A DNA stretch of 64,000 nt from TPA_inf: Saccharomyces (lineage: Eukaryota). Positions 603-58,626 of this stretch are shown here, piece by piece (position 1 is the stretch's first letter; every line of letters begins with the position of its first letter). The notes beneath the pieces are model-generated. The model made no database searches, had not been told where the DNA came from, and saw nothing but the letters and a program-made list of their open reading frames with translations. Where the stretch lies: the NCBI GenBank assembly GCA_000146045.2, contig BK006946.2, forward strand, positions 352,001-416,000, given 5' to 3'. Made by a program: the position numbers and the translations under genes.

Positions 603-1136
603 ATGACGTCGAATAGCGACGGTTCAAGTACCAGTCCAGTTGAGAAACCAATTACCGGCGATGTTGAAACTAATGAACCTACCAAACCAATACGGCGGCT
701 TTCAACGCCATCGCCAGAACAAGATCAAGAAGGCGATTTCGACGAAGAAGACGATGATGACAAATTCAGCGTGAGCACATCAACTCCCACCCCAACCATA
801 ACGAAAACTAAGGACAGCAGCGACACAAGTACGGTTACGAGGCGGAAGCAGCCGATCAGGTACATCGAGAATAAGACCCGGAGACATGTCACCTTCTCGA
901 AGAGGCGGCACGGGATCATGAAAAAAGCATATGAGCTCTCCGTCCTAACCGGCGCCAATATTCTGCTTCTAATTCTGGCAAACTCTGGCCTGGTCTACAC
1001 TTTCACAACGCCTAAGCTCGAGCCGGTGGTACGGGAAGACGAGGGTAAGAGCCTCATCAGGGCATGCATCAATGCTTCAGACACTCCTGACGCTACCGAC
1101 ACGTCGCCGGCACAGGAACAATCTCCGGCAAACTGA
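603..1136 (+). CDS. ARG80: ARG80, MADS-box transcription factor of the arginine regulatory (ArgR-Mcm1) complex, 177 aa
   Basis: The ORF starts MTSNSDGSSTSPVEK and carries a MADS box (RYIENKTRRHVTFSKRRHGIMKKAYELSVLTG). I take the start at the third ATG of the 594 ORF to match the known 177-aa product. It is the tandem paralog of the downstream MCM1. Confidence 0.85.
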   Translation: MTSNSDGSSTSPVEKPITGDVETNEPTKPIRRLSTPSPEQDQEGDFDEEDDDDKFSVSTSTPTPTITKTKDSSDTSTVTRRKQPIRYIENKTRRHVTFSKRRHGIMKKAYELSVLTGANILLLILANSGLVYTFTTPKLEPVVREDEGKSLIRACINASDTPDATDTSPAQEQSPAN

Positions 1137-1870
1137 ACATGCGAGAGTAAGAGATGCCCCACGAAGGCATAGGCAGATCCATATAGCACAATACGCGCAT
1201 ATAAAGTAGCATTGCTGCCAAAGGGGGTTGCACAAGGAGTTGCCCTCCTTCGGCACGCGGCTCGGAACATACCGGAGTGTCCCCCTTTGAGTAATTTTTC
1301 TCAAAAGAGGCACTTTTGCGCTGGGCCGCAGGAAATTTCCCTTTCTGTTCAGCACCTGTTGTCCTATATTAAGCTGTGCCAAACAAGGTCATCTCCAAAT
1401 ACTTACCAAAAAGCTAGGGCGTACTGTACTGGAATCTCTGCTTTTTTCTTTACCTTACTTCAATTTGCCTTGTCTGCTTTTTTACGTGTGTTTTGGCGTT
1501 TCTGCTTTTCTTTTTTATTACTCGTTGTTGTAAATCATTTTCTAAGTATTATACATACTATATCATCGCATACCCAATCGGTTTCCTATTCTCACCACTT
1601 TTTTCTGGAAAAATACATAGCCTAACAAGCAATTTTATTTTACGTTTGTTAATTCATTATACTGATAATATTTTTGAATTTTTTTTTTTTTTGATACATT
1701 TTTTTTAATCGCTGTTTTGTCTGTTTTTTTCGATTCAGTTATAGGGAAAAAAACGGGAAAGGAAAGAGAAAAAAAAATTAGTGCAGAGCAATAAGAAGCG
1801 AAAATCAAAAAAAAGTTTTGGATCTGCAAGACTTGCTGTCACGCAACAATATTATAGCCACCCAGCAAAA

Positions 1871-2731
1871 ATGTCAGACATCGAAGAAGGTACGCCTACT
1901 AATAATGGGCAACAGAAGGAGAGAAGAAAGATAGAAATTAAGTTCATCGAGAATAAAACAAGGCGCCATGTGACATTTTCCAAAAGGAAGCACGGTATCA
2001 TGAAAAAGGCGTTTGAGCTTTCTGTTCTAACGGGGACCCAGGTCCTGTTGCTAGTCGTTTCAGAAACAGGTTTGGTATATACTTTCAGCACGCCGAAGTT
2101 TGAACCTATAGTCACGCAGCAGGAAGGTAGAAACCTGATCCAGGCCTGTCTTAACGCCCCTGATGATGAGGAAGAAGACGAGGAGGAAGACGGTGATGAT
2201 GATGATGATGATGACGATGATGGTAATGATATGCAACGCCAGCAACCACAACAACAGCAACCGCAACAACAGCAACAAGTATTGAATGCACACGCAAATA
2301 GCTTAGGCCATCTAAATCAAGATCAGGTACCGGCAGGCGCGCTGAAACAAGAGGTGAAGTCACAATTGCTAGGCGGTGCCAATCCTAATCAAAACTCAAT
2401 GATTCAACAGCAGCAACATCACACGCAGAATTCACAACCACAACAGCAACAGCAACAACAACCACAGCAGCAAATGTCACAGCAACAAATGTCACAGCAT
2501 CCTCGACCACAGCAAGGAATACCACATCCGCAACAATCGCAGCCACAGCAACAGCAACAACAACAACAACAACTGCAACAGCAGCAACAGCAGCAACAAC
2601 AACAACCCCTCACCGGCATTCATCAGCCTCACCAACAGGCTTTTGCCAACGCTGCCTCCCCCTATCTGAATGCTGAACAGAATGCTGCCTACCAACAATA
2701 CTTTCAAGAACCGCAACAAGGCCAATACTAA
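1871..2731 (+). CDS. MCM1: MCM1, essential MADS-box transcription factor, 286 aa, with a C-terminal Q-rich tail and an acidic D/E tract
   Basis: The protein starts MSDIEEGTPTNNGQQKERRKIEIKFIENKTRRHVTFSKRKHGIMKKAFELSVLTG, the canonical MCM1 N-terminus. The track ORF begins 90 nt upstream at an in-frame ATG; I chose the MSDIEEG start. Confidence 0.93.
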   Translation: MSDIEEGTPTNNGQQKERRKIEIKFIENKTRRHVTFSKRKHGIMKKAFELSVLTGTQVLLLVVSETGLVYTFSTPKFEPIVTQQEGRNLIQACLNAPDDEEEDEEEDGDDDDDDDDDGNDMQRQQPQQQQPQQQQQVLNAHANSLGHLNQDQVPAGALKQEVKSQLLGGANPNQNSMIQQQQHHTQNSQPQQQQQQQPQQQMSQQQMSQHPRPQQGIPHPQQSQPQQQQQQQQQLQQQQQQQQQQPLTGIHQPHQQAFANAASPYLNAEQNAAYQQYFQEPQQGQY

Positions 2732-3383
2732 TCTTATCGATTTCCGTATATAATTCATAGACGAGCATTAAGAGGAAAAAGCTGTTTCCGTACCAATTAA
2801 AGAAAGATAGACAACAAGAACAAAAACGTACATTACTCTATATTGAAAAAAGCCCTATGTCGGTAAAAGAATAGGAAGTACCTTAGTCATCGGCACTTAC
2901 CTTTTTTTTTACGATTACTTCTGGTTTGTTTCTTTGCCTCATTTCATTTTGCTGCCACTTTCTTTCATAGGCAAGAAGATTCAATCAAATCTCCCCTTCT
3001 CCTTCCCCGGATATATAAAATATAAATATAAAACTTTAAGAATATAAAAATATGAGAAACCACACATAACTTGTATACTTTACTCACATACACACATTTC
3101 CAAAAAAATTATAATGTTAATTACATTGCTTTTAATGCTAATCTTTTTTTAGTTGTATAATCATTACCATATAAATGCCTCTCGGTCTAATTTCATTGCC
3201 AGTATTGTAAGTTATATACTTTTATACGAGTGTACGGAAAATATCGTGGCTCCCCGTTAACAGTGAAATAAATCTACGCATGTAGCTGCCAGTTTTTTAA
3301 GCGTTATATCAATATTGGTAAAGTAAGAATTGACGAAGAAATTGTTAACTACATTTTTCAGAACGGCGTGTCATTCTCCGATA

Positions 3384-4811
3384 ATGTCTGAAGCGATATT
3401 CCAGCCAACGGACATTGTCCTTGCCAAAGTTAAAGGCTTTTCAGCATGGCCAGCAATGATTATCCCTAATGAACTCATCCCAGATAACATCCTCAAGACC
3501 AAACCTGTGAGTGTCCACAAAGGCAAATCAGGTAGTGATAAAAAAGCAAATGAAGATATAGATGCAGACATGGAATCAGAGGCTAGAGATCGAGAGCAAA
3601 GCGAAGAAGAAGAAGATATAGAGGATTTTGGTGAGAGTGAGGCTAATCCTGAAAAATTTATAATATACACTCCCGTTCTGAAGTTTCGTAAAAATGATAC
3701 GTTGAAATCGACTTACTGCGTCAAGTTTTTTTGCGATGATTCTTATATCTGGGTGAAGCCCATGGATATGAAGATTCTAACAAGCGAAGATTGTCGTAAG
3801 TGGCTAAGCGGCAAACAGCGGAAGAATAAGAAACTCATACCGGCATATGAAATGGCTATGAGAGGCAAAAATGGAATTGATATTTGGGAATTTGTGGAAT
3901 ATGGGTCTTACGGCAAGCCAGATGAAGAGGAATATGTAGAGGAAGAGGAAGAAGAGAACGAACCTGAAAAAAAGGCTATAAGGCCAACCAGGTCTTCCAG
4001 TAGACAGCGTCAGAAGCGCGCCTCAGAAACGGAAAAGAGTGAGGGCGGTAATAGCAATAAAAGGAAAAGAGTTACTAGATCGACTAGGCAACAAGCGATA
4101 GATGCTTCAGAAGAGGAAGAGGAGGAAGAGGAGGAAAAAGTACAAGAGGCTGTTAGAAAGAGGCCGCAAAGGACCAAAACTAAGAAAGTTGTAGTATCCA
4201 AGACTAAACCAAATCCAAAAACAAAGGCAAAGAAAGAGAAACCTAAACCACCTAAGCCAATCAAATATCATTTTGAAGATGATGAAGATTGGAGCATTGT
4301 TGGGTTGGGCCCACAAGATCTATCAATCGAAAAAACGATGGATCCGATTGCGAAAAAACTGTCGCAGAAGAAAAATCTAGAAAAGCATGTGGAGATTAAG
4401 CTAGATCTGGAGGATAAACTAGCAGGTATCAACAAGCTCCTGTGTGATGTCTTATGTTCAGCCATTAACCAGGCTGTTTCGATAAAGGATGATTTCGAAA
4501 TAATATTAGATGAATTGCAGATTGCCCTTGACACCAGGGGGTCCAGAAACGAATTTATAACAATTTTCCAATCAAATAATTCCCTACTGTTAAACTTTAG
4601 GATATTATTTAACTTAAGAAAAAGGGAACTGAACAAATGGGATCTGTGGGATCGTTTCCAGGATATTTTCAAGCATATTTATTCCTACCAGTTCATACCT
4701 GATACGGAAGATTGGCAACTAGAGCAAAATATGGAAATTGAAGAAATGGATCGGGAAAAGCCGAGCTTTAGTGAAGACGTAAAGGAAGAAGAAAGCAAAG
4801 TAGGAGCATGA
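3384..4811 (+). CDS. IOC4: IOC4, PWWP-domain subunit of the Isw1b chromatin remodelling complex, 475 aa
   Basis: It has a PWWP-like N-terminus (DIVLAKVKGFSAWPAMIIP) and long acidic and basic low-complexity stretches. I placed the start at MSEAIFQ to give the known 475 aa. Confidence 0.8.
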   Translation: MSEAIFQPTDIVLAKVKGFSAWPAMIIPNELIPDNILKTKPVSVHKGKSGSDKKANEDIDADMESEARDREQSEEEEDIEDFGESEANPEKFIIYTPVLKFRKNDTLKSTYCVKFFCDDSYIWVKPMDMKILTSEDCRKWLSGKQRKNKKLIPAYEMAMRGKNGIDIWEFVEYGSYGKPDEEEYVEEEEEENEPEKKAIRPTRSSSRQRQKRASETEKSEGGNSNKRKRVTRSTRQQAIDASEEEEEEEEEKVQEAVRKRPQRTKTKKVVVSKTKPNPKTKAKKEKPKPPKPIKYHFEDDEDWSIVGLGPQDLSIEKTMDPIAKKLSQKKNLEKHVEIKLDLEDKLAGINKLLCDVLCSAINQAVSIKDDFEIILDELQIALDTRGSRNEFITIFQSNNSLLLNFRILFNLRKRELNKWDLWDRFQDIFKHIYSYQFIPDTEDWQLEQNMEIEEMDREKPSFSEDVKEEESKVGA

Positions 4812-5004
4812 CCTGTTGCTATTGCAGTTGATGTACTCTGCTTTTGAACAATAGAGGGGAAACCTGTGTACTATAAAATAGACTAAAACTATGTAACTTG
4901 TGTATGTTCTGATATGTATGACGCAGTCTTTGATAGTCCAAAACTCACCTAGACTGTGCTGTATTATTACAATTAAAGTTCTAAGTCTGTTGTGCATTAT
5001 CATT

Positions 5005-5336
5005 TGAGAAATGGGGGAATGTTGAGATAATTGTTGGGATTCCATTGTTGATAAAGGCTATAATATTAGGTATACAGAATATACTAGAAGTTCTCCTCAA
5101 GGATATAGGAATCCTCAAAATGGAATCTATATTTCTACATACTAATATTACGATTATTCCTCATTCCGTTTTATATGTTTCATTATCCTATTACATTATC
5201 AATCCTTGCACTTCAGCTTCCTCTAACTTCGATGACAGCTTCTCATAACTTATGTCATCATCTTAACACCGTATATGATAATATATTGATAATATAACTA
5301 TTAGTTGATAGACGATAGTGGATTTTTATTCCAACA
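5005..5336 (-). repeat. Ty1 3' LTR (delta), 332 bp
   Basis: Canonical delta sequence, identical to the copy at 10587-10918. Confidence 0.95.
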
Positions 5337-5358
5337 TACCACCCATAATGTAATAGAT

Positions 5359-8300
5359 CTAATGAATCCATTTGTTTGTTAATAGTTTGAATGTTTTTAT
5401 CGGAAGAGGTTTGGTCATTACGTCTGCAATATTCTTTTTGGTTTCGATATAGCATACGTGCAGATGATTTCCTGATACTTCATCTCTCAGTCTCATTGCT
5501 TTAGTACCAAAAAATCTGTTTCTAAATTTCTCTTCATTATTGGATATAATTATACTGATTGTAGATTTACTGTCGGTTAGTAATCCTTTGGTAATTGGTT
5601 TCTTGTCGAGTTCTTGTATCAGGTAACTTAGATTATTTAATAATGGGACAGATTCACTTATTGCGTGTATTTCTGCTTCCGTAGTTGAAGTACATGTTAA
5701 TGAAGCCTTGGTGGACTTTCCTCCAATTACTTTTCCATTAAGTAAATATATGTTGCCAATTTGTGATTTATAATACGGTTGGTTACCATACGATGCATCG
5801 CTTATAACAACTAATTTATTTGTTGGCTTAACAGGTTTGCTTTTGTGCCATATTAATTGCTTATCTCTCGTATTCCATATGAACTGTATCAATTCATATG
5901 TCATATCTAACACTTGCTTGGACGGAAATAGTATATGTTGTGCAAGTGTGTTGATGTAGTATAATAGGTCAAATCTAAATTTATATCCAACATATGATGC
6001 TAGACCTATCAGCTTTTGCATTTCATGTACCTTCATTTTGTAATCATCTTCTTCTAGCTCTAGTTCTTGCTGGTCTATATATAGACCTGGTTGACCTGGA
6101 GCGCTAAGTTTCCTTCCTTTTGGGTTCAAAGGTACGTTTAGTTTGGGTATTTTTTCAGTTAATGAGTTTTCCATACCCAATTTCATGTATTTACCTCTTT
6201 GGTATTTGATTTCCAAGCCAAGAATGTCATATTGAATTTCCTCATCACTTTCGCCTAGATTTATAATCTTGGTGTCGTATTGCATCTTAAGCTTGTCTAT
6301 AATTCTTTTGTTTGAATTTAGATTTTTGCTAAACAGTACCATATCATCTACGAATAAACAAATTGTCACTTGACTGTTTTCAAATACGCATGACCATCCA
6401 CGAACTTCTTCCATACCACACTGTTTTATCAGGTATGATTTGATAGTTTCGTACCAGTTCGCTCCACTTTGTTTCAATCCATAAAGTGATTTCTTCAAAC
6501 GTATCAACTTATCATTCATTCCTAAATGTGGTGGAGGTCTTATGTATAATTCTTCTTTGATGTCTGCATACAAATATGCCGAAGATATGTCTAATTGTGT
6601 AATATAGTAGTTATTGTCTAATGCAAGTGACAGGGATGTCATTAATGCATAGTGATGTACGGTATTGGATTGCATGCCTGAGTCGTAAGTGTCAGGATGC
6701 TGAATATCACCTCTTGCAACAAATCTAGCTTTATGAGTACCGTCACGTTTCCTGTTGAAGATAAACATTGAATTTATTACTCTTTTAGGGTCTATTTCTT
6801 TTCTGTCATAATATTTGTCAGTGTCCCAAGTTTTCATCTTCAACAGTTGATTGACTTCTTTGTGGTATGCCTCGATATATTTTTCTTTTTCTTTAATATC
6901 TTTATTATAGGTGATTGCCTCATCGTATCGTAAGGTTGTTCGTATTGGTTTGATTGATTTTACTGCTTTTACAGCTGCAATCAGGTGGATTCGTTTCTTC
7001 GATCTCGGAGGTTCTAAACTACGCATATTCTTAGTATTCCATGTGTCTCGTGATACCTTAATTTCAGTTTCATTATCTTCTAATGATCTTTTCTTACTGT
7101 TGATAGTAGTATAGGCATTAGAGTCACCAATACCACCCAAACTGGAATTAGTTTGACGAGAATTGATCGGTGGAAGTTCTTTAAAGGAGTCTGATAATTC
7201 GGTAGGAGGTTCTGGAGGCAGATCGGGAAGTGGAAGATCAGCAATTATAGATTCCTCTGTATTCTCCTTAGGACAGGTATCTGACGTTTTGATAGGAACG
7301 ACGTGGTGTAGTGAATTACTTTCTGATGAGGAAGTATCGATCGAAGGTGAACGGTGTATGATCCTTTTCTCAGTCTCCTGTTCGCTTGTCTGCGGAACAG
7401 TTTTATTATTGGTACCACCCGTACTGGATATTGGTACGTTTGTATGATTAGTCTCATTGTCACTGTACGAGTCTGAGTGTCTGAAATCTTTAGATTTACT
7501 GGCGTGCGACGACTCATGTGTGTTAGATTGGGACATGGGAGCAAGTAAAGGAACATCTAATCTATGCATACCACCCGAACCGGTACTCTCGATATCGGAA
7601 ATTTGGGGGGTGCTAGATCTCTTCTTAGATGGAAGAATATTAGATTCAGATATGTTGGGGTCAACTTCTCTGGGTGCGCGAATATTGGTTTTGGAAACAC
7701 GTTTCGAATCTTCAGTATGAGTTGACGGAGGTGTGGAATCGGTTGGACTCACAGCTTTTGAAAGGACATTTCTCAGTTGCTCAGGATGTAGTTCAATGTC
7801 AGATTGGAAGTCATGGTCAGATTCTATGTTAAGATCATTGGATTGTTGGATCTCATTTGACGCAATGAACGAATGATATGAAGCAGTTAAACGGTTTAAG
7901 TCTTCATCGAAAGTGAGTGCGTCGTAATTGAATTGATCTAATCTGGATTCCTTGCCCTGAAGAATAACATAGTTAGTTGTATCTACTGTCTTCTTTAAGG
8001 ACGGAAGATAGATGATATATCCATAAGAGTTTCGAGACGGATGTAGAGCGTAGCCTGGGATGCCACGAGGATGTATTTTGGAGTTAGGGTTGTGATCATT
8101 GACGATAACAGGTTGACCGAAAGGTAACAAAGTACTGATATCAAGTCCTGCCAAGCCAGCATGTTGTCTTGCAGATTTTTTGCTTTTAGGTGAAGCTAGT
8201 GAATTTCTCACAATAGTAGAAAATTCGATTGCAGAGAACCATAAATGGTTCGGTAAACCACTACATTGCAGTTGAGTACGGCAGTCATCTAATAAGGTAC

Positions 8301-35314: not shown

Positions 35315-36244
35315 TCACTTGAATTTTTTGCCAAACATTATGAGTTGCAACTGATCGTACAATGAGATGACACCAGCTGCAGCGACTCCTCTAAATATGT
35401 TGGCACCACAGCCCTTGAACAAGGAATACGCGCCCTCTTTCTGAACAATCTTTCTCAAACAGTCCAGAGCACCGTCGTACTTGATGGTCTGGCCCGAAGT
35501 CATCATCATCCTTCTTCTTACCGTATCCAAGGGATACGACGCAGTGGAAGCACCCATGGTAATGACCCAACCTAATAGGAAAGAGGCAACAAAGGACCCC
35601 TCTAGAGCCCCCGTCAACAGCACAGGCTTGAAAGAATCGTACAAGCCAAAGTACAGACCTCTGTAGACAATGATACCCAGAACTGAGGGCACAAACCCAC
35701 GGTACAGACCCAACAACCCGTCCGTTTTCAGTGTCTTCTTATACACGTCTAGCAATCCATTAAACTGTCTTTGCGAGGTTGACTTAGAACCCCTAGCATC
35801 CGCTGCAAGCCGCGTCCTTGCGTAGTCCAAGGAATATACAAATAGAAGCGACAAACCACCAGCCGCTCCACCAGAGAAAAGATTTCCAGCAAACCACTTG
35901 GCATACCCATCGCGCTCTCTGTCGTAACTCAACAACGACTTAATTTTGTCTTTGAAGGCAAAATTCAGCGCCTGCGTGGGGAAATACCGGAGAACATTGG
36001 CGGTGTTACCCCTCCAGAACGACACAATACCTTCATGAGTCGCAGTCCTCTTGAAGCAATCTAAAATTCCCTTGTACCGTGTATCCAACGAGCCCTGTTT
36101 AAGCATCTCTTCTTGATTCTGCATCAACAGTTTCACCCGTTCAATGGGAGCGGCACCCGTCTTCGCAATGGCAGCAGAAACGCCGCCCATAAGGAAGTCC
36201 ACACCGAAGTGTGACTGCTGAGTCTGTGTTTCTGTGTGAGACAT
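35315..36244 (-). CDS. AAC1: AAC1, mitochondrial ADP/ATP carrier, 309 aa
   Basis: It has a three-fold mitochondrial carrier repeat, and the RRRMMM nucleotide-carrier signature is present. The N-terminus [29 protein letters not shown] and the 309-aa length match AAC1. Confidence 0.92.
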
Positions 36245-53573: not shown

Positions 53574-54303
53574 TGTATTGTGCGCTTATTAGTCTGCCTT
53601 GCTATTCTTCGCAGTACGTAGATTTATCTTAGTTTTTGCATTTTTTGGTTTTCTTTTTTTTTTGCCACACATAGTACAATAAAAGAGAACTTGAATCTTT
53701 GAAGAAACGTCTAAATTAACATCGAAGATAGAAGACAGGGAAACATCTAGGATTGCAAGAAATAGTGCTGAAATTTTGTAATAAAGTTGCAAGAAATAGC
53801 ATCTAGCGTTTTATAAGGCGTACATCTTTCTTGGCAAGAGTTCCAAGAGAAAAGAGGAGCAAAACAGCGGTTGAGGCGCCCGCTATCTTGAATATTATAC
53901 AGTTTCTTTAAAAACGCTTGTACAACACTGCATAAACATGGACAAATTATTGAAATTGTTTCAAGATATTTCCCATATCATATTCCAATAGCGTTACTCT
54001 CTCATCGCTTATTCTGGAATCATTATTTTAATAAAGATAACTCACACGATATACGTGTACTGAGCTGACCTTTATACCTACCCTTACCTGCTTATTCCTG
54101 ATAAAAATGTTCGTGCAACTAATTGTTTGATTTCTCTTGCGGCCCGGTTATTCCGGAGTTGATACTTTTTTTCTTCTGTCTTAATTACGTTTTTTTCCTC
54201 TAGACTTTTTTGATCTGGTACAATTGAAAATGTATAAATCAACTGGACCCTAAAAATAAAAAAAAAAAACGCCCATTAGAAAAGAGGATATATTGAACAA
54301 AAG

Positions 54304-55584
54304 ATGTTGAAAGAGCCCTCAGTTCGCTTGCGGGAGGCTATTATTGAAGGCAATTTACTTATAGTGAAAAGATTATTGCGACGGAATCCGGATTTGCTAA
54401 CCAACATAGACTCAGAGAACGGATGGAGTTCATTACATTACGCCTCATACCATGGAAGATACCTTATATGCGTGTATTTAATTCAGCTGGGGCACGACAA
54501 GCATGAACTAATAAAAACCTTTAAAGGAAACACCTGTGTGCATTTAGCATTAATGAAAGGGCACGAGCAAACCTTACATTTACTTTTGCAACAATTTCCG
54601 CGATTTATCAACCATCGCGGAGAGAATGGTAGAGCCCCCATCCATATAGCATGTATGAACGATTACTACCAATGTCTGAGTCTGTTGATAGGAGTTGGTG
54701 CTGATTTATGGGTAATGGACACTAATGGCGACACGCCGCTGCATGTATGCCTGGAGTATGGCAGTATAAGTTGTATGAAGATGCTTCTCAATGAAGGTGA
54801 GGTGTCCTTGGATGATAATGTCAGGGACAAGGGAAATTGGAAGCCAATAGATGTAGCACAAACGTTTGAAGTAGGTAATATATATTCAAAAGTGTTAAAA
54901 GAGGTGAAAAAGAAGGGGCCACCGTTGGGTGCAGGCAAAAAACCAAGTTCATTCAGAACTCCTATACTAAATGCGAAGGCCACTTTCGAGGACGGGCCTT
55001 CCCCAGTTTTAAGCATGAATTCGCCATATTCGCTCTATTCCAATAATAGTCCGTTGCCGGTATTACCAAGAAGGATATCAACGCATACAACAAGCGGTAA
55101 CGGTGGGAATCGGAGGAGTTCTATCACAAATCCAGTATTCAACCCACGAAAACCAACCTTGTCTACGGACAGTTTTTCGTCAAGCTCAAATTCCAGCTCG
55201 AGACTAAGAGTGAACTCCATCAACGTCAAGACTCCAGTAGGTGTGTCGCCCAAGAAAGAGCTTGTATCTGAATCAGTACGACACAGTGCAACACCAACAA
55301 GTCCGCACAACAACATCGCGTTGATTAATAGATACTTGTTGCCTAACAAGAGCAATGACAACGTGAGAGGAGACTCACAGACAGCTACAATCAACGATGA
55401 CGGTGGCGGCGGCAATGGCGGTGATGCCACTATAGGAATGGGACTAAGAAAGGACCCGGACGATGAGAACGAGAACAAGTACAAGATTAAGGTAAACAAT
55501 GGCGAGCCGAGGAGACGAGTGTCACTTCTGAACATACCCATCTCAAAATTAAGAAATAGCAATAACACGCGTGCAGAAGATTGA
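54304..55584 (+). CDS. AVO2: AVO2, ankyrin-repeat subunit of TORC2, 426 aa
   Basis: N-terminal ankyrin repeats (G.SLHYAS.HGR, TPLH..) are followed by an S/N-rich tail. The length is 426 aa. Confidence 0.88.
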   Translation: MLKEPSVRLREAIIEGNLLIVKRLLRRNPDLLTNIDSENGWSSLHYASYHGRYLICVYLIQLGHDKHELIKTFKGNTCVHLALMKGHEQTLHLLLQQFPRFINHRGENGRAPIHIACMNDYYQCLSLLIGVGADLWVMDTNGDTPLHVCLEYGSISCMKMLLNEGEVSLDDNVRDKGNWKPIDVAQTFEVGNIYSKVLKEVKKKGPPLGAGKKPSSFRTPILNAKATFEDGPSPVLSMNSPYSLYSNNSPLPVLPRRISTHTTSGNGGNRRSSITNPVFNPRKPTLSTDSFSSSSNSSSRLRVNSINVKTPVGVSPKKELVSESVRHSATPTSPHNNIALINRYLLPNKSNDNVRGDSQTATINDDGGGGNGGDATIGMGLRKDPDDENENKYKIKVNNGEPRRRVSLLNIPISKLRNSNNTRAED

Positions 55585-55708
55585 GAAGACTACTACGTAT
55601 TTTTTTTTATATGCATCCTTTTTTCCACATATGTATGCGCGGTGCGCGCGCGCCATTAAAAGATTTTTTTCTTAGCTCTTTTTCTTTTTTCTTTTTCTTT
55701 CCACTGAG

Positions 55709-56566
55709 ATGCGTTCTTCGGTATATAGTGAGAACACTTACAACTGTATACGAACATCGAAGGAGCACCTAACAGAAAGAAGGAGGGTCGCCATGGCGCC
55801 AATGTTCCAACATTTCTTAAACTTATGCGTGGAAAAATTTCCTGAATCCATCGAGCACAAGGATACAGATGGAAACGGTAACTTCACCACCGCTATTTTA
55901 GAAAGGGAGATTATCTACATCCCCGAAGATGACACTGACAGTATTGACAGCGTTGACAGCCTCAAGTGTATAAACTACAAGCTGCACAAATCTCGCGGCG
56001 ACCAAGTGCTGGACGCCTGTGTGCAATTGATAGACAAGCACCTGGGCGCCAAGTATCGCCGGGCCTCGCGCATTATGTACGGCAACAGGAAACCATGGAA
56101 GGCAAACAAACTCGCAGAGATGAAAAGCGCCGGCCTTGTGTATGTCTGTTACTGGGACAACGGCGTGCTAGGTGCATTTACTTCATTCATGCTTACAGAG
56201 GAGACGGGTCTCGTCGAAGGTGACGCTTTACACGAGGTTAGCGTGCCCGTGATATACCTTTACGAAGTACATGTAGCTAGCGCGCACCGCGGGCATGGAA
56301 TCGGTCGGCGGCTACTGGAGCATGCACTGTGCGATGGCGTAGCTCGACACACCCGCCGCATGTGCGACAATTTCTTCGGTGTAGCACTCACCGTATTCAG
56401 TGATAACACTCGGGCCCGGCGACTATATGAGGCGCTTGGGTTCTACCGCGCTCCGGGATCACCCGCACCAGCATCACCCACAATTCGTCACACGCGACAT
56501 GGTGGGGGACGTGTAGTCGTGCCCTGCGATCCGCTTTATTACGTATATTGCCTTCACATGCCGTGA
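55709..56566 (+). CDS. NAT4: NAT4, GNAT-family histone H4/H2A N-terminal acetyltransferase, 285 aa; the gene is strikingly GC-rich
   Basis: It is 285 aa and has a GNAT acetyl-CoA motif region (HRGHGIGRRLLEHAL). Confidence 0.85.
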   Translation: MRSSVYSENTYNCIRTSKEHLTERRRVAMAPMFQHFLNLCVEKFPESIEHKDTDGNGNFTTAILEREIIYIPEDDTDSIDSVDSLKCINYKLHKSRGDQVLDACVQLIDKHLGAKYRRASRIMYGNRKPWKANKLAEMKSAGLVYVCYWDNGVLGAFTSFMLTEETGLVEGDALHEVSVPVIYLYEVHVASAHRGHGIGRRLLEHALCDGVARHTRRMCDNFFGVALTVFSDNTRARRLYEALGFYRAPGSPAPASPTIRHTRHGGGRVVVPCDPLYYVYCLHMP

Positions 56567-57153
56567 AAGCCGACAGGGACAACGCGCGATAAAAAAAAAA
56601 TTAAAAGTAAAACTACGTACGCGGCGGCGCGACTCGAATCCTTGACTCCGACTGAGGAGACCCGAACAACGCTCCCTGCTCTCCGCCTTCGGCGCCTTCC
56701 GATAACTGCGCACGGCAAGGAGTAGTGGCGATAACGGTGTTTATTGCCGGTTTTTTCGTTTTTCTTCTTGATTTTCTTCTTTTTTTTCCTCAAAAGATGT
56801 GCTGTAGCCTCCGCTGTTGTTTTTTTTTATCCTACCAAGGCGCATCATCCTGTCATGATCTGCGCTGGATAGTATTTATACTACTACTCCGTCTGGATTT
56901 ACTAAACTTTGTCTCTCTTTTGATGTAAAGTTAAAGAAGAATTACGAAAAAAGAGAGAAAAAATAGAAACAAATAATAGGAATTAAGGCCTTGTAGCAAT
57001 CAAAAAAAAAAAGAAAAAAAAGGAATTTTTTTTGGAAGAAAACTTGAACAAAACAATTCCTCAAGAAGGAACAGGTACAAGAAAAGATTTAACAGAAGGA
57101 AAACTAATAGGCAACAGTAGGCAAATAGTAAAGGGACATATCATATTTGAGCA

Positions 57154-58626
57154 ATGAATGCGGACCATCACCTGCAACAGCAGCAGCAACAGCGACAACA
57201 GCATCAACAACAACAGCATCAACAACAACAGCATCAGCATCAGCATCAACAGCAGCAGCACACGATATTACAAAATGTGTCGAACACTAACAATATCGGC
57301 AGCGATTCGCTGGCGTCACAGCCTTTCAACACGACTACTGTTTCCTCTAACAAGGACGACGTTATGGTGAACTCTGGGGCAAGAGAACTTCCAATGCCCT
57401 TACATCAGCAGCAGTATATATACCCTTACTATCAGTATACAAGTAATAACAGTAACAACAATAATGTGACGGCTGGTAACAATATGTCTGCGTCGCCGAT
57501 TGTCCATAACAACAGCAACAACAGCAACAACAGCAATATTTCTGCTTCTGATTACACTGTCGCAAACAACAGTACTAGCAATAATAACAATAATAATAAT
57601 AATAACAACAATAATAACAATAATATTCACCCAAACCAGTTTACTGCGGCCGCAAATATGAACTCAAATGCTGCAGCGGCTGCTTATTACTCCTTCCCCA
57701 CTGCGAATATGCCAATACCGCAACAGGATCAACAATATATGTTCAATCCTGCTTCATACATAAGCCATTACTATTCAGCAGTTAACAGCAATAACAATGG
57801 TAATAACGCCGCTAACAATGGCAGCAACAACTCTTCTCACTCAGCCCCAGCCCCGGCCCCCGGTCCACCCCATCACCATCACCATCATAGTAATACACAC
57901 AACAACCTCAACAATGGTGGTGCTGTAAATACAAACAACGCTCCTCAGCACCATCCAACGATAATAACGGATCAATTTCAATTCCAACTACAACAAAACC
58001 CTTCTCCAAATTTGAATCTCAATATTAACCCGGCACAACCTCTGCATCTACCTCCTGGTTGGAAAATAAACACTATGCCGCAACCACGTCCTACGACAGC
58101 ACCTAACCATCCCCCTGCGCCGGTGCCTTCTTCGAACCCTGTGGCCTCGAACTTGGTTCCTGCCCCATCATCAGACCATAAATATATCCATCAATGCCAA
58201 TTTTGTGAGAAGTCTTTCAAAAGAAAATCATGGTTGAAAAGGCACCTATTGTCACACTCGCAACAAAGACATTTTCTATGCCCTTGGTGCTTAAGCAGGC
58301 AGAAGAGAAAAGATAATCTTTTACAGCATATGAAACTCAAGCATACAAATTATTTATTAGACGAACTCAAGAAAAACAACATCATCTTTAACTACAACAA
58401 TTCTTCCTCCTCTAATAATAACAACGACAATAATAATAATAATAACAGCAATAGCGCTAGCGGCAGTGGCGGTGCCGGTGCCGCGGCGGCAGCAGCAACA
58501 GCTCCCGAAAATGAAGATGGAAACGGTTACGATACAAACATCAAGACTTTAATCAATGATGGTGTACTGAATAAGGACGACGTTAAACGTGTTTTGAATA
58601 ACCTTATTGTTAGTCACAACAAATAG
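57154..58626 (+). CDS. MOT3: MOT3, C2H2 zinc-finger transcription factor with a Q/N-rich prion-forming N-terminal domain, 490 aa
   Basis: It has N-terminal poly-Q (Q/H) and poly-N tracts and a PHHHHHH run. Two C2H2 fingers (CQFCEKSFKRKSWLKRHLLSH and CPWCLSRQKRKDNLLQHMKLKH) lie near the C-terminus. Confidence 0.93.
   Translation: MNADHHLQQQQQQRQQHQQQQHQQQQHQHQHQQQQHTILQNVSNTNNIGSDSLASQPFNTTTVSSNKDDVMVNSGARELPMPLHQQQYIYPYYQYTSNNSNNNNVTAGNNMSASPIVHNNSNNSNNSNISASDYTVANNSTSNNNNNNNNNNNNNNNIHPNQFTAAANMNSNAAAAAYYSFPTANMPIPQQDQQYMFNPASYISHYYSAVNSNNNGNNAANNGSNNSSHSAPAPAPGPPHHHHHHSNTHNNLNNGGAVNTNNAPQHHPTIITDQFQFQLQQNPSPNLNLNINPAQPLHLPPGWKINTMPQPRPTTAPNHPPAPVPSSNPVASNLVPAPSSDHKYIHQCQFCEKSFKRKSWLKRHLLSHSQQRHFLCPWCLSRQKRKDNLLQHMKLKHTNYLLDELKKNNIIFNYNNSSSSNNNNDNNNNNNSNSASGSGGAGAAAAAATAPENEDGNGYDTNIKTLINDGVLNKDDVKRVLNNLIVSHNK

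Follow-up and report, generated by a model that had tools for sequence, protein, structure and literature searches.

Known cases of GC drive include the mouse gene Fxy (Mid1) at the pseudoautosomal boundary and the mammalian "accelerated" regions that are driven by GC-biased gene conversion (gBGC). In the genus Saccharomyces, peaks in the G+C content at third codon positions (GC3) have been described (PMC3020949, PMC9246145). Another compositionally deviant system is the left arm of chromosome C of Lachancea kluyveri, which passages of PMC10962940 describe as a GC-rich segment of about 1 Mb that is ascribed to introgression and is without meiotic recombination. Here we analyze a GC-rich island over NAT4 (YMR069W) of S. 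cerevisiae, the gene for the histone H4/H2A N-terminal acetyltransferase NatD. The island is located in a stretch of 64,000 nucleotides (contig BK006946.2, positions 352,001 to 416,000), which we refer to as the window. An earlier note, made from the letters of this stretch, had reported the island and had offered three possible explanations: gBGC at a recombination hotspot, an introgressed or horizontally acquired segment, or unusual selective constraint. We consider it probable that the island is what S. cerevisiae retains of a regional GC peak dating from the stem of the genus, with gBGC from conserved hotspots as the most likely source, and that it is now mostly an eroding relic.

The NAT4 locus shares several properties with the described GC3 peaks of Saccharomyces. 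In both, G+C rises locally at synonymous sites and in flanks, most strongly in a short gene flanked by promoters, and is far higher in S. uvarum than in S. cerevisiae; a decay away from promoters is seen at the NAT4 locus in UBX4 of S. uvarum and S. eubayanus, but not in AVO2. The NAT4 peak differs by a visible shift of first codon positions and amino acids, and its amplitude (GC3 0.56-0.81) is far above the fitted genome average (about 0.32-0.45). As in mouse Fxy, part of a conserved gene has high GC3, non-preferred GC-rich codons, GC-directed replacements and a raised dN/dS, while the rest of the gene and the orthologues elsewhere are ordinary. However, relocation into a known hyper-recombining region is a feature described for Fxy, the state of NAT4 is genus-wide rather than that of one species, and the strength of gBGC is disputed in yeast. 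The L. kluyveri arm (PMC10962940, PMC9246145) resembles the island in being a GC-rich segment of deviant composition within the genome of a Saccharomycetaceae yeast; the NAT4 island differs from it in being 0.8-5 kb long, syntenic and congruent with the species tree. Text searches of the literature (YMR069W; NAT4/MOT3 together with hotspot) found no paper describing the NAT4 GC locus.

A GC-rich island over NAT4 in S. cerevisiae

By its ORF content, the window belongs to chromosome XIII of S. cerevisiae. The genes at the locus are located on the plus strand in the order AVO2 (54304-55584), NAT4/YMR069W (55709-56566, 285 aa) and MOT3 (57154-58626), and two Ty1 copies precede them in the window. 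The NAT4 product has a Pfam GNAT domain (PF00583) at residues 137-245 (E = 1e-12), matches an S. cerevisiae protein cluster at 99% identity, and has orthologues named Nat4p, NatD or NAA40. By its domain and its orthology to named NatD proteins, it is predicted to be a GNAT acetyltransferase of the NAA40/NatD type. NAT4 presumably corresponds to about 407.7-408.6 kb of chromosome XIII, a coordinate mapping in which window position 1 is taken to be about chrXIII 352001 in SGD coordinates; the Ty-sized Spo11 coldspots in a published table agree with this mapping. The three parts into which we divide the gene and its 3' flank are:

55959..56566, plus strand: GC-rich 3' two-thirds of NAT4 (codons 85-285, GNAT domain), defined by composition, codon counts, Pfam and named orthologues
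55709..55958, plus strand: 5' third of NAT4, poorly conserved, defined by composition and alignment
56567..56696, no strand: GC-rich 3' flank of NAT4 (3' UTR/terminator region), poorly conserved in sequence, defined by composition and alignment

The G+C content is 55.5% at 55960-56720 and 50.7% at 55590-56730, against 38.4% for the whole window. The richest segments of 200, 500 and 800 bp in the 64 kb (0.62, 0.572 and 0.552) all start between 55921 and 56281, and the 800 bp maximum is about 4 standard deviations above the window mean. The reported island is therefore real, and at these three lengths it is indeed the most anomalous stretch, as the earlier note had it. At 60 bp, however, it comes second to position 58451 in MOT3 (0.70). 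The 60 bp segment at 56281-56340 is GC-rich as reported, with a corrected count of 41/60 rather than 40/60 G+C, and the coding string quoted as an example is found in the sequence. The richest 60 bp segment, at 58451-58520, belongs to the 3' region of MOT3 that encodes an Ala/Gly run.

The flanks had been described as GC-rich on both sides, which applies to the 3' side only. There, the GC-rich zone reaches about 175 bp beyond the NAT4 stop, and 56567-56740 has 55% G+C and an observed-to-expected CpG ratio of 1.66. On the 5' side, 55585-55708 has 35.5% G+C, apart from a CG run of 18 bp. The first 250 bp of NAT4, which had been taken for ordinary AT-rich coding sequence, are AT-rich at 43% G+C but not quite ordinary, as their GC3 is already 0.52.

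Codons 85-285 of NAT4 have a G+C content of 55.4%, with values of 0.64, 0.44 and 0.58 at first (GC1), second (GC2) and third positions. The preferred codons of S. cerevisiae include AGA for Arg and TTG for Leu. In this part of NAT4, 17 of the 18 Arg codons are CGN and none is AGA, and CTN accounts for 18 of the 20 Leu codons and TTG for one. On these counts we rejected translational selection on codon usage as a cause. In the 25 other open reading frames (ORFs) of the window, CGN makes up 37.7% of the Arg codons and CTN 48.3% of the Leu codons (binomial P = 7e-7 and 1e-4), so that codon choice in the 3' part of NAT4 is even more atypical than had been claimed. The GC3 of the whole gene (0.563) is the highest among the 30 long ORFs of the window, with two others at 0.556 and 0.558. 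What is unusual about NAT4 is thus its GC1 and its choice of Arg and Leu codons rather than GC3 alone, which is in the upper tail without being unique. The two other ORFs, at 603-1136 (GC3 0.556; 10/10 Leu codons are CTN) and 35315-36244 (0.558), may be further GC3 peaks within the 64 kb. Minus-strand ORFs of 61-79 aa inside the island were taken to be the usual stop-poor artefact of GC-rich DNA.

The GC peak is present throughout Saccharomyces

We compared the locus with six other Saccharomyces loci, which we label S. paradoxus-like, S. mikatae-like, S. kudriavzevii, S. eubayanus, S. uvarum and a second sequence of the uvarum lineage. The labels were taken from an identity matrix and, together with S. 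cerevisiae, represent at least five species. The paradoxus-like contig (L001) ends about 300 bp past NAT4 and the second uvarum-lineage contig (L006) about 220 bp past it. The order UBX4-AVO2-NAT4 is present in 6/6 of these sequences, and MOT3, TVP18 and ABF2 follow downstream wherever the contig reaches. Pairwise identities of AVO2 and of NAT4 both agree with the species tree.

The GC peak has the same position in all six of these sequences as in S. cerevisiae. In the five species profiled, the maximum of the GC profile falls in the same 300 bp bins: 0.55 in S. cerevisiae, 0.58 in S. mikatae, 0.61 in S. kudriavzevii, 0.66 in S. eubayanus and 0.67 in S. uvarum. The GC3 of NAT4 is 0.563, 0.527 and 0.563 in the cerevisiae, paradoxus-like and mikatae-like sequences, 0.651 in S. 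kudriavzevii, and 0.792, 0.804 and 0.807 in the eubayanus/uvarum clade. Over the 180 bp that follow the NAT4 stop, G+C is 51-57% in every species, yet the alignment there is poor, meaning that composition has been kept without sequence.

The peak is about 0.8 kb wide in S. cerevisiae, and in S. uvarum it widens to about 5 kb. In the S. eubayanus and uvarum-lineage loci (L005, L006 and L007) the wider domain has GC3 values of 0.5-0.9 and runs from the 5' end of UBX4 through TVP18 (about positions 900-6400 of these loci). Its members include the left neighbour of NAT4:

54304..55584, plus strand: AVO2, left neighbour, member of the same regional GC3 domain, defined by GC3 per species

The GC3 of AVO2 is mildly raised in S. 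cerevisiae (0.46) and amounts to 0.54-0.74 in S. kudriavzevii and 0.58-0.90 in the eubayanus/uvarum clade, in which MOT3 reaches 0.48-0.72 and TVP18 0.57-0.58. The body of UBX4 stays at 0.28-0.44 in that clade. Starting from the divergent UBX4-AVO2 promoter, the GC3 of UBX4 falls across the first 150 codons from 0.64 through 0.48 to 0.28 in S. uvarum and from 0.60 through 0.54 to 0.32 in S. eubayanus. The S. cerevisiae peak, unlike this gradient, is located from the middle to the 3' part of NAT4. Over the region, G and C at third positions (G3 and C3) are both raised.

Direction of recent substitutions

Substitutions in the island (55959-56696) were polarised by parsimony using a sister and an outgroup sequence. 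Counts are small and confidence intervals (CI) wide. For each branch, the numbers of changes from G or C to A or T (S>W) and in the opposite direction (W>S) are given, followed by the implied equilibrium and the current G+C content:

S. cerevisiae branch: S>W/W>S 27/18, equilibrium 0.45 (95% CI 0.30-0.58), current 0.54
S. paradoxus-like branch: S>W/W>S 23/9, equilibrium 0.33, current 0.53
S. mikatae-like branch: S>W/W>S 31/16, equilibrium 0.43, current 0.57
S. eubayanus branch: S>W/W>S 19/8, equilibrium 0.43, current 0.62
S. uvarum branch: S>W/W>S 9/10, equilibrium 0.65, current 0.63

The substitutions in AVO2 have the same sign as those in the island. The branch of S. uvarum is the only one consistent with a maintained G+C content (0.65), on small counts. 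The polarised counts thus suggest that the island is a relic under slow erosion in most lineages, with maintenance, if any, confined to S. uvarum. The counts argue against a strong present-day drive in S. cerevisiae, and not against a past episode.

Origin of the GC-rich sequence

The NAT4 genes of Nakaseomyces glabratus, Naumovozyma castellii, Monosporozyma unispora and three Kazachstania-type sequences have GC3 values of 0.26-0.36, equal to their local background, and adjoin other genes than in Saccharomyces. Over the full length, the Saccharomyces proteins are 28-33% identical to orthologues of other Saccharomycetaceae genera, and both parts of the protein, 5' and 3', match the same yeast orthologues. 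A HMMER search with the GC-rich part against 1.84 billion protein representatives gave, as best matches outside Saccharomyces, the NatD proteins of Naumovozyma, Kazachstania, Lachancea, Nakaseomyces and Maudiozyma, with 36-49% identity. This exhaustive search detected no donor closer than the NatD of sister genera, the bacterial, phage and plasmid collections being unsearched, and in a word-indexed search of 5.8 billion clusters all matches above 60% identity were from Saccharomyces. Because the outgroups are ordinary and no closer relative was found, NAT4 is vertically inherited, and its rise in G+C falls on the Saccharomyces stem, after the split from Nakaseomyces, Naumovozyma and Kazachstania.

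We then weighed the possibility that NAT4 or its 3' part came into the Saccharomyces ancestor from a GC-rich donor by transfer or introgression and has been ameliorating since. Composition and codon usage that are atypical for the host, the different neighbours of NAT4 in other genera, and the decay of G+C on most terminal branches, which amelioration predicts, are in agreement with such an event. On the other hand, neither the 5.8 billion clusters nor the 1.84 billion representatives contain a donor-like sequence, and the next matches after Saccharomyces are sister-genus NatD proteins at 28-49% identity, to which both protein parts align. Moreover, the enrichment in the uvarum clade extends to AVO2, MOT3, TVP18 and the 5' end of UBX4, and S. 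uvarum shows no amelioration. The borders of the island are devoid of repeats, tRNA genes and mobile-element scars: ARAGORN detected no tRNA gene at the locus, only poly-T tracts were seen when the borders were inspected for repeats or mobile-element remnants, and the sole match in an Rfam E-value scan of 54000-58000 was a spurious CrcZ in MOT3, far under the gathering score. We therefore regard an ancient transfer as very improbable. The suggestion of an introgressed or horizontally acquired segment is contradicted by a GC peak that is syntenic across Saccharomyces, by divergence congruent with the species tree, and by nearest outsiders that are Saccharomycetaceae NatD proteins. The comparison of orthologues that the earlier note had proposed as a check gave the same answer: G+C is high in all Saccharomyces examined, with a congruent phylogeny.

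Effects on the NatD protein

The shift in composition extends to the encoded protein. Gly, Ala, Arg and Pro together make up 0.32-0.40 of the last 200 residues in Saccharomyces, versus 0.13-0.20 in the outgroups, and Phe, Tyr, Met, Ile, Asn and Lys make up 0.14-0.22 versus 0.28-0.43. The numbers of Arg and Lys residues in this part are 18-23 and 5-9 in Saccharomyces, versus 8-14 and 10-19 in the outgroups. The GNAT domain and the blocks YLYE..., RG.G.G and LTVF..N are common to the NAA40/NatD proteins of the sister genera, from which the Saccharomyces proteins differ by about twice as much Gly/Ala/Arg/Pro and by low identity (28-33% over the full length, 36-49% in the GNAT part). The dN/dS is 0.15-0.26 for NAT4 versus 0.04-0.15 for AVO2. 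Judged from these ratios and compositions, NAT4 is evidently still under purifying selection, with its protein pushed in the GC direction.

The start of the reading frame also differs between species. The conserved NAT4 start is Met32 (MFQ...), and only S. cerevisiae and the S. paradoxus-like sequence have an open frame across the extension of 31 residues upstream of it. The annotated ATG (55709-55801 region) is kept across species; it opens an upstream ORF of 6-7 codons in the S. mikatae-like sequence (MHLLSI*) and in S. eubayanus (MRLPII*). The in-frame upstream region also contains stops in S. kudriavzevii and both uvarum-lineage sequences.

Proposed GC drive by gBGC and its alternatives

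Comparison of the aligned loci indicates that a non-adaptive, regional, GC-ward pressure acted on coding and noncoding DNA alike. It moved synonymous sites to non-preferred GC-rich codons, with first-position changes in Arg codons (AGR to CGN) and Leu codons (TTR to CTN) among them, and shifted the NatD protein towards Gly, Ala, Arg and Pro. In the mechanism that we propose, the peak would have arisen on the Saccharomyces stem, centred on NAT4. The putative driver is GC-biased repair of meiotic heteroduplex, i.e., gBGC, which would spread from candidate double-strand-break hotspots on either side of the short NAT4 gene, in intergenic regions that contain promoters, at positions that would be conserved across the genus. 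The drive would be strongest, now or formerly, in the S. uvarum/eubayanus clade with its domain of about 5 kb. The lower peak of S. cerevisiae, S. paradoxus and S. mikatae, where substitutions are now slightly AT-ward, would be largely a relic.

Of the three explanations offered before, gBGC at a recombination hotspot has the best fit. G+C is raised in coding and noncoding DNA, at all codon positions and independently of codon preference, as is expected of a gBGC peak. In the conversion-tract model of yeast, GC3 falls from gene ends and tracts are about 1 kb long (PMC3020949), and the gradient in UBX4 is as this model predicts. Positions and strengths of hotspots are conserved across Saccharomyces, owing to their location in promoters (10.1101/023176). 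Among the sensu stricto species, it is S. uvarum that has strong, physically clustered sets of high-GC3 genes (PMC9246145), and an earlier study, as summarised in a passage of that paper, assigned the strongest gBGC signal to S. uvarum. The published table of Spo11-oligo coldspots lists none between chrXIII 404032 and 412419, about 4 kb on either side of NAT4 (PMC8276760).

Several observations weigh against this explanation. An excess of AT-to-GC changes is not seen on the S. cerevisiae branch, and the paradoxus-like, mikatae-like and S. eubayanus branches are alike in this respect. The equilibrium G+C of the S. cerevisiae island (0.45) is not clearly above that of AVO2 (0.37). In the uvarum clade, the GC3 of AVO2 is fairly flat and high rather than graded from the promoter. 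In addition, the average effect of gBGC on GC3 fitted for S. cerevisiae is only about +0.09 to +0.12 on a base of 0.32-0.33 (PMC3020949); to reach a GC3 of 0.8, the drive therefore has to be exceptional or long-lasting. Yeast gBGC has been described as weak and crossover-specific (PMC3649680). According to summaries in PMC9246145, one tetrad study of S. cerevisiae found none of it, and recombination may itself be raised by GC-rich DNA, so that the causality would be reversed. A stronger form of the explanation is that NAT4 is located on an exceptionally strong, genus-old centre of recombination and gBGC, whose intensity varies about two-fold between species and which has roughly doubled the Gly/Ala/Arg/Pro content of NatD. 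We put this forward tentatively, and consider it doubtful. If true, NAT4 would be a yeast counterpart of mouse Fxy, tractable for distinguishing gBGC from GC-dependent recombination.

Part of the same evidence would also result from a regional mutation bias without biased conversion, caused by replication timing, nucleotide pools or error-prone repair of recurrent breaks, with recombination being attracted by the GC-rich DNA. Such a bias fits the enrichment of coding sequence and unconserved flank, of all codon positions and of the neighbours in the uvarum clade equally well. The general mutation spectrum of yeast is AT-biased, which counts against it. The peak also covers little DNA, with about 0.8 kb in S. 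cerevisiae and some 5 kb in S. uvarum, and it falls off within 150 codons inside UBX4, a scale that fits conversion tracts of about 1 kb and not replication domains. A strand-asymmetric form of the bias linked to transcription was rejected as unlikely because G3 and C3 rise together. A possible causality from G+C to recombination and the tetrad study without gBGC, both as summarised in part of PMC9246145, speak for a mutation bias. We consider such a bias unlikely as the source of the peak, though it deserves to be kept in view.

Selection for high G+C itself is another candidate, acting through nucleosome occupancy or insulation of the AVO2, NAT4 and MOT3 units, through structure or stability of the NAT4 mRNA, or through an Arg/Ala/Gly-rich NatD. 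The position of the peak has been retained for the age of the genus, dS between S. cerevisiae and S. uvarum is lower in NAT4 (1.17) than in AVO2 (1.90), and two CG-rich noncoding motifs at the island edges are clearly constrained, all of which speaks for such selection. It accounts poorly for a NAT4 GC3 that ranges from 0.53 to 0.81 among close relatives, for a 3' flank that retains composition and not sequence, and for the enrichment of uvarum-clade neighbours of unrelated function. Furthermore, NatD is AT-rich and Lys-rich in six other Saccharomycetaceae sequences, the codons used in Saccharomyces are non-preferred, and lineages of the S. cerevisiae clade are losing G+C. The unusual selective constraint that had been suggested is thus a poor fit to the locus, and we judge selection for G+C improbable. 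We favour regional drive by gBGC on the genus stem, with the reservations given above.

CG runs and conserved noncoding elements

Two alternating CG runs had been reported at the edges of the island, and both exist. The run in the promoter is at 55637-55654, one position off the earlier assignment, and the second is at 56620-56636 as reported. The noncoding elements described in this section include:

55637..55664, no strand: conserved CG-rich motif in the otherwise AT-rich NAT4 promoter, defined by conservation and motif count
56697..56762, no strand: nearly invariant noncoding block at the right island edge, defined by alignment of 7 Saccharomyces sequences

The promoter motif, GCGCGGT-GCGYGCGCCATTTTGA (55637..55664), is conserved across the genus. 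S. cerevisiae has two extra CG, which give the only CGCGCGCG in the window (1 match; 0.06 expected). An alternating purine-pyrimidine run of 12-13 bp at 55643-55654 is likewise unique in the window and takes a shorter, interrupted form in the other species. The earlier note had attributed Z-DNA potential to the CG runs, and functional Z-DNA-forming elements bracketing NAT4 would account for the alternating run GTGCGCGCGCGC and for its CGCGCGCG, the only one in 64 kb. However, the run is reduced to an interrupted GCGYGCGCC in other species, the conserved unit is a longer motif that includes CCATTTTGA, and the second run (56620-56636) is not conserved. We consider functional Z-DNA extremely improbable. 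Because the promoter run is located within a longer motif conserved across the genus, the motif is more likely a protein-binding site; its CGCGC resembles the Rsc3/Rsc30 site.

The block at 56697-56762, about 66 bp of noncoding DNA located some 400-450 bp upstream of the MOT3 ATG, is almost invariant in 7/7 Saccharomyces sequences. It contains two CGATAAC units, CCGATAACTGCG and GGCGATAACGG, which resemble sites of the Hap1 type (CGGnnnTAnCGG). The block is probably an upstream regulatory or activating element of MOT3, and its degree of conservation suggests that it is GC-rich by constraint and not by drift. A second highly conserved noncoding block, at 56835-56900, carries TATTTATA some 280 bp before the MOT3 ATG; it is probably the core promoter of MOT3, whose 5' UTR would then be long.

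Two further motifs were found in and next to the NAT4 coding sequence. A perfect URS1-like core, TCGGCGGCT, the consensus of the Ume6 site, is present at 56305-56313, with no second copy in the window (0.08 expected). As a functional URS1 it was rejected: it is probably incidental, because it is located within the codons of the conserved GIGRR acetyl-CoA motif and is absent from the uvarum clade, although the species from S. cerevisiae to S. kudriavzevii share it. The sequence ACGCGCGATA at 56583-56593, just after the NAT4 stop, is conserved from S. cerevisiae to S. kudriavzevii and has diverged in the uvarum clade.

Significance of the NAT4 island

The NAT4 island exemplifies, in a sharp form, the GC3 heterogeneity already known from Saccharomyces chromosomes; it is well supported but ordinary, and it reveals no new kind of element. 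What is notable about it is its age, the two-fold difference in amplitude among species and the visible effect on a conserved enzyme. S. cerevisiae loses one candidate for horizontal transfer or introgression, and analyses of codon usage and dN/dS that include NAT4 call for caution. NAT4 documents regional, non-adaptive GC pressure in yeast cleanly at a single locus, and the locus could provide a compact test case for gBGC, mutation bias and GC-stimulated recombination as sources of the GC peaks in yeast genomes.

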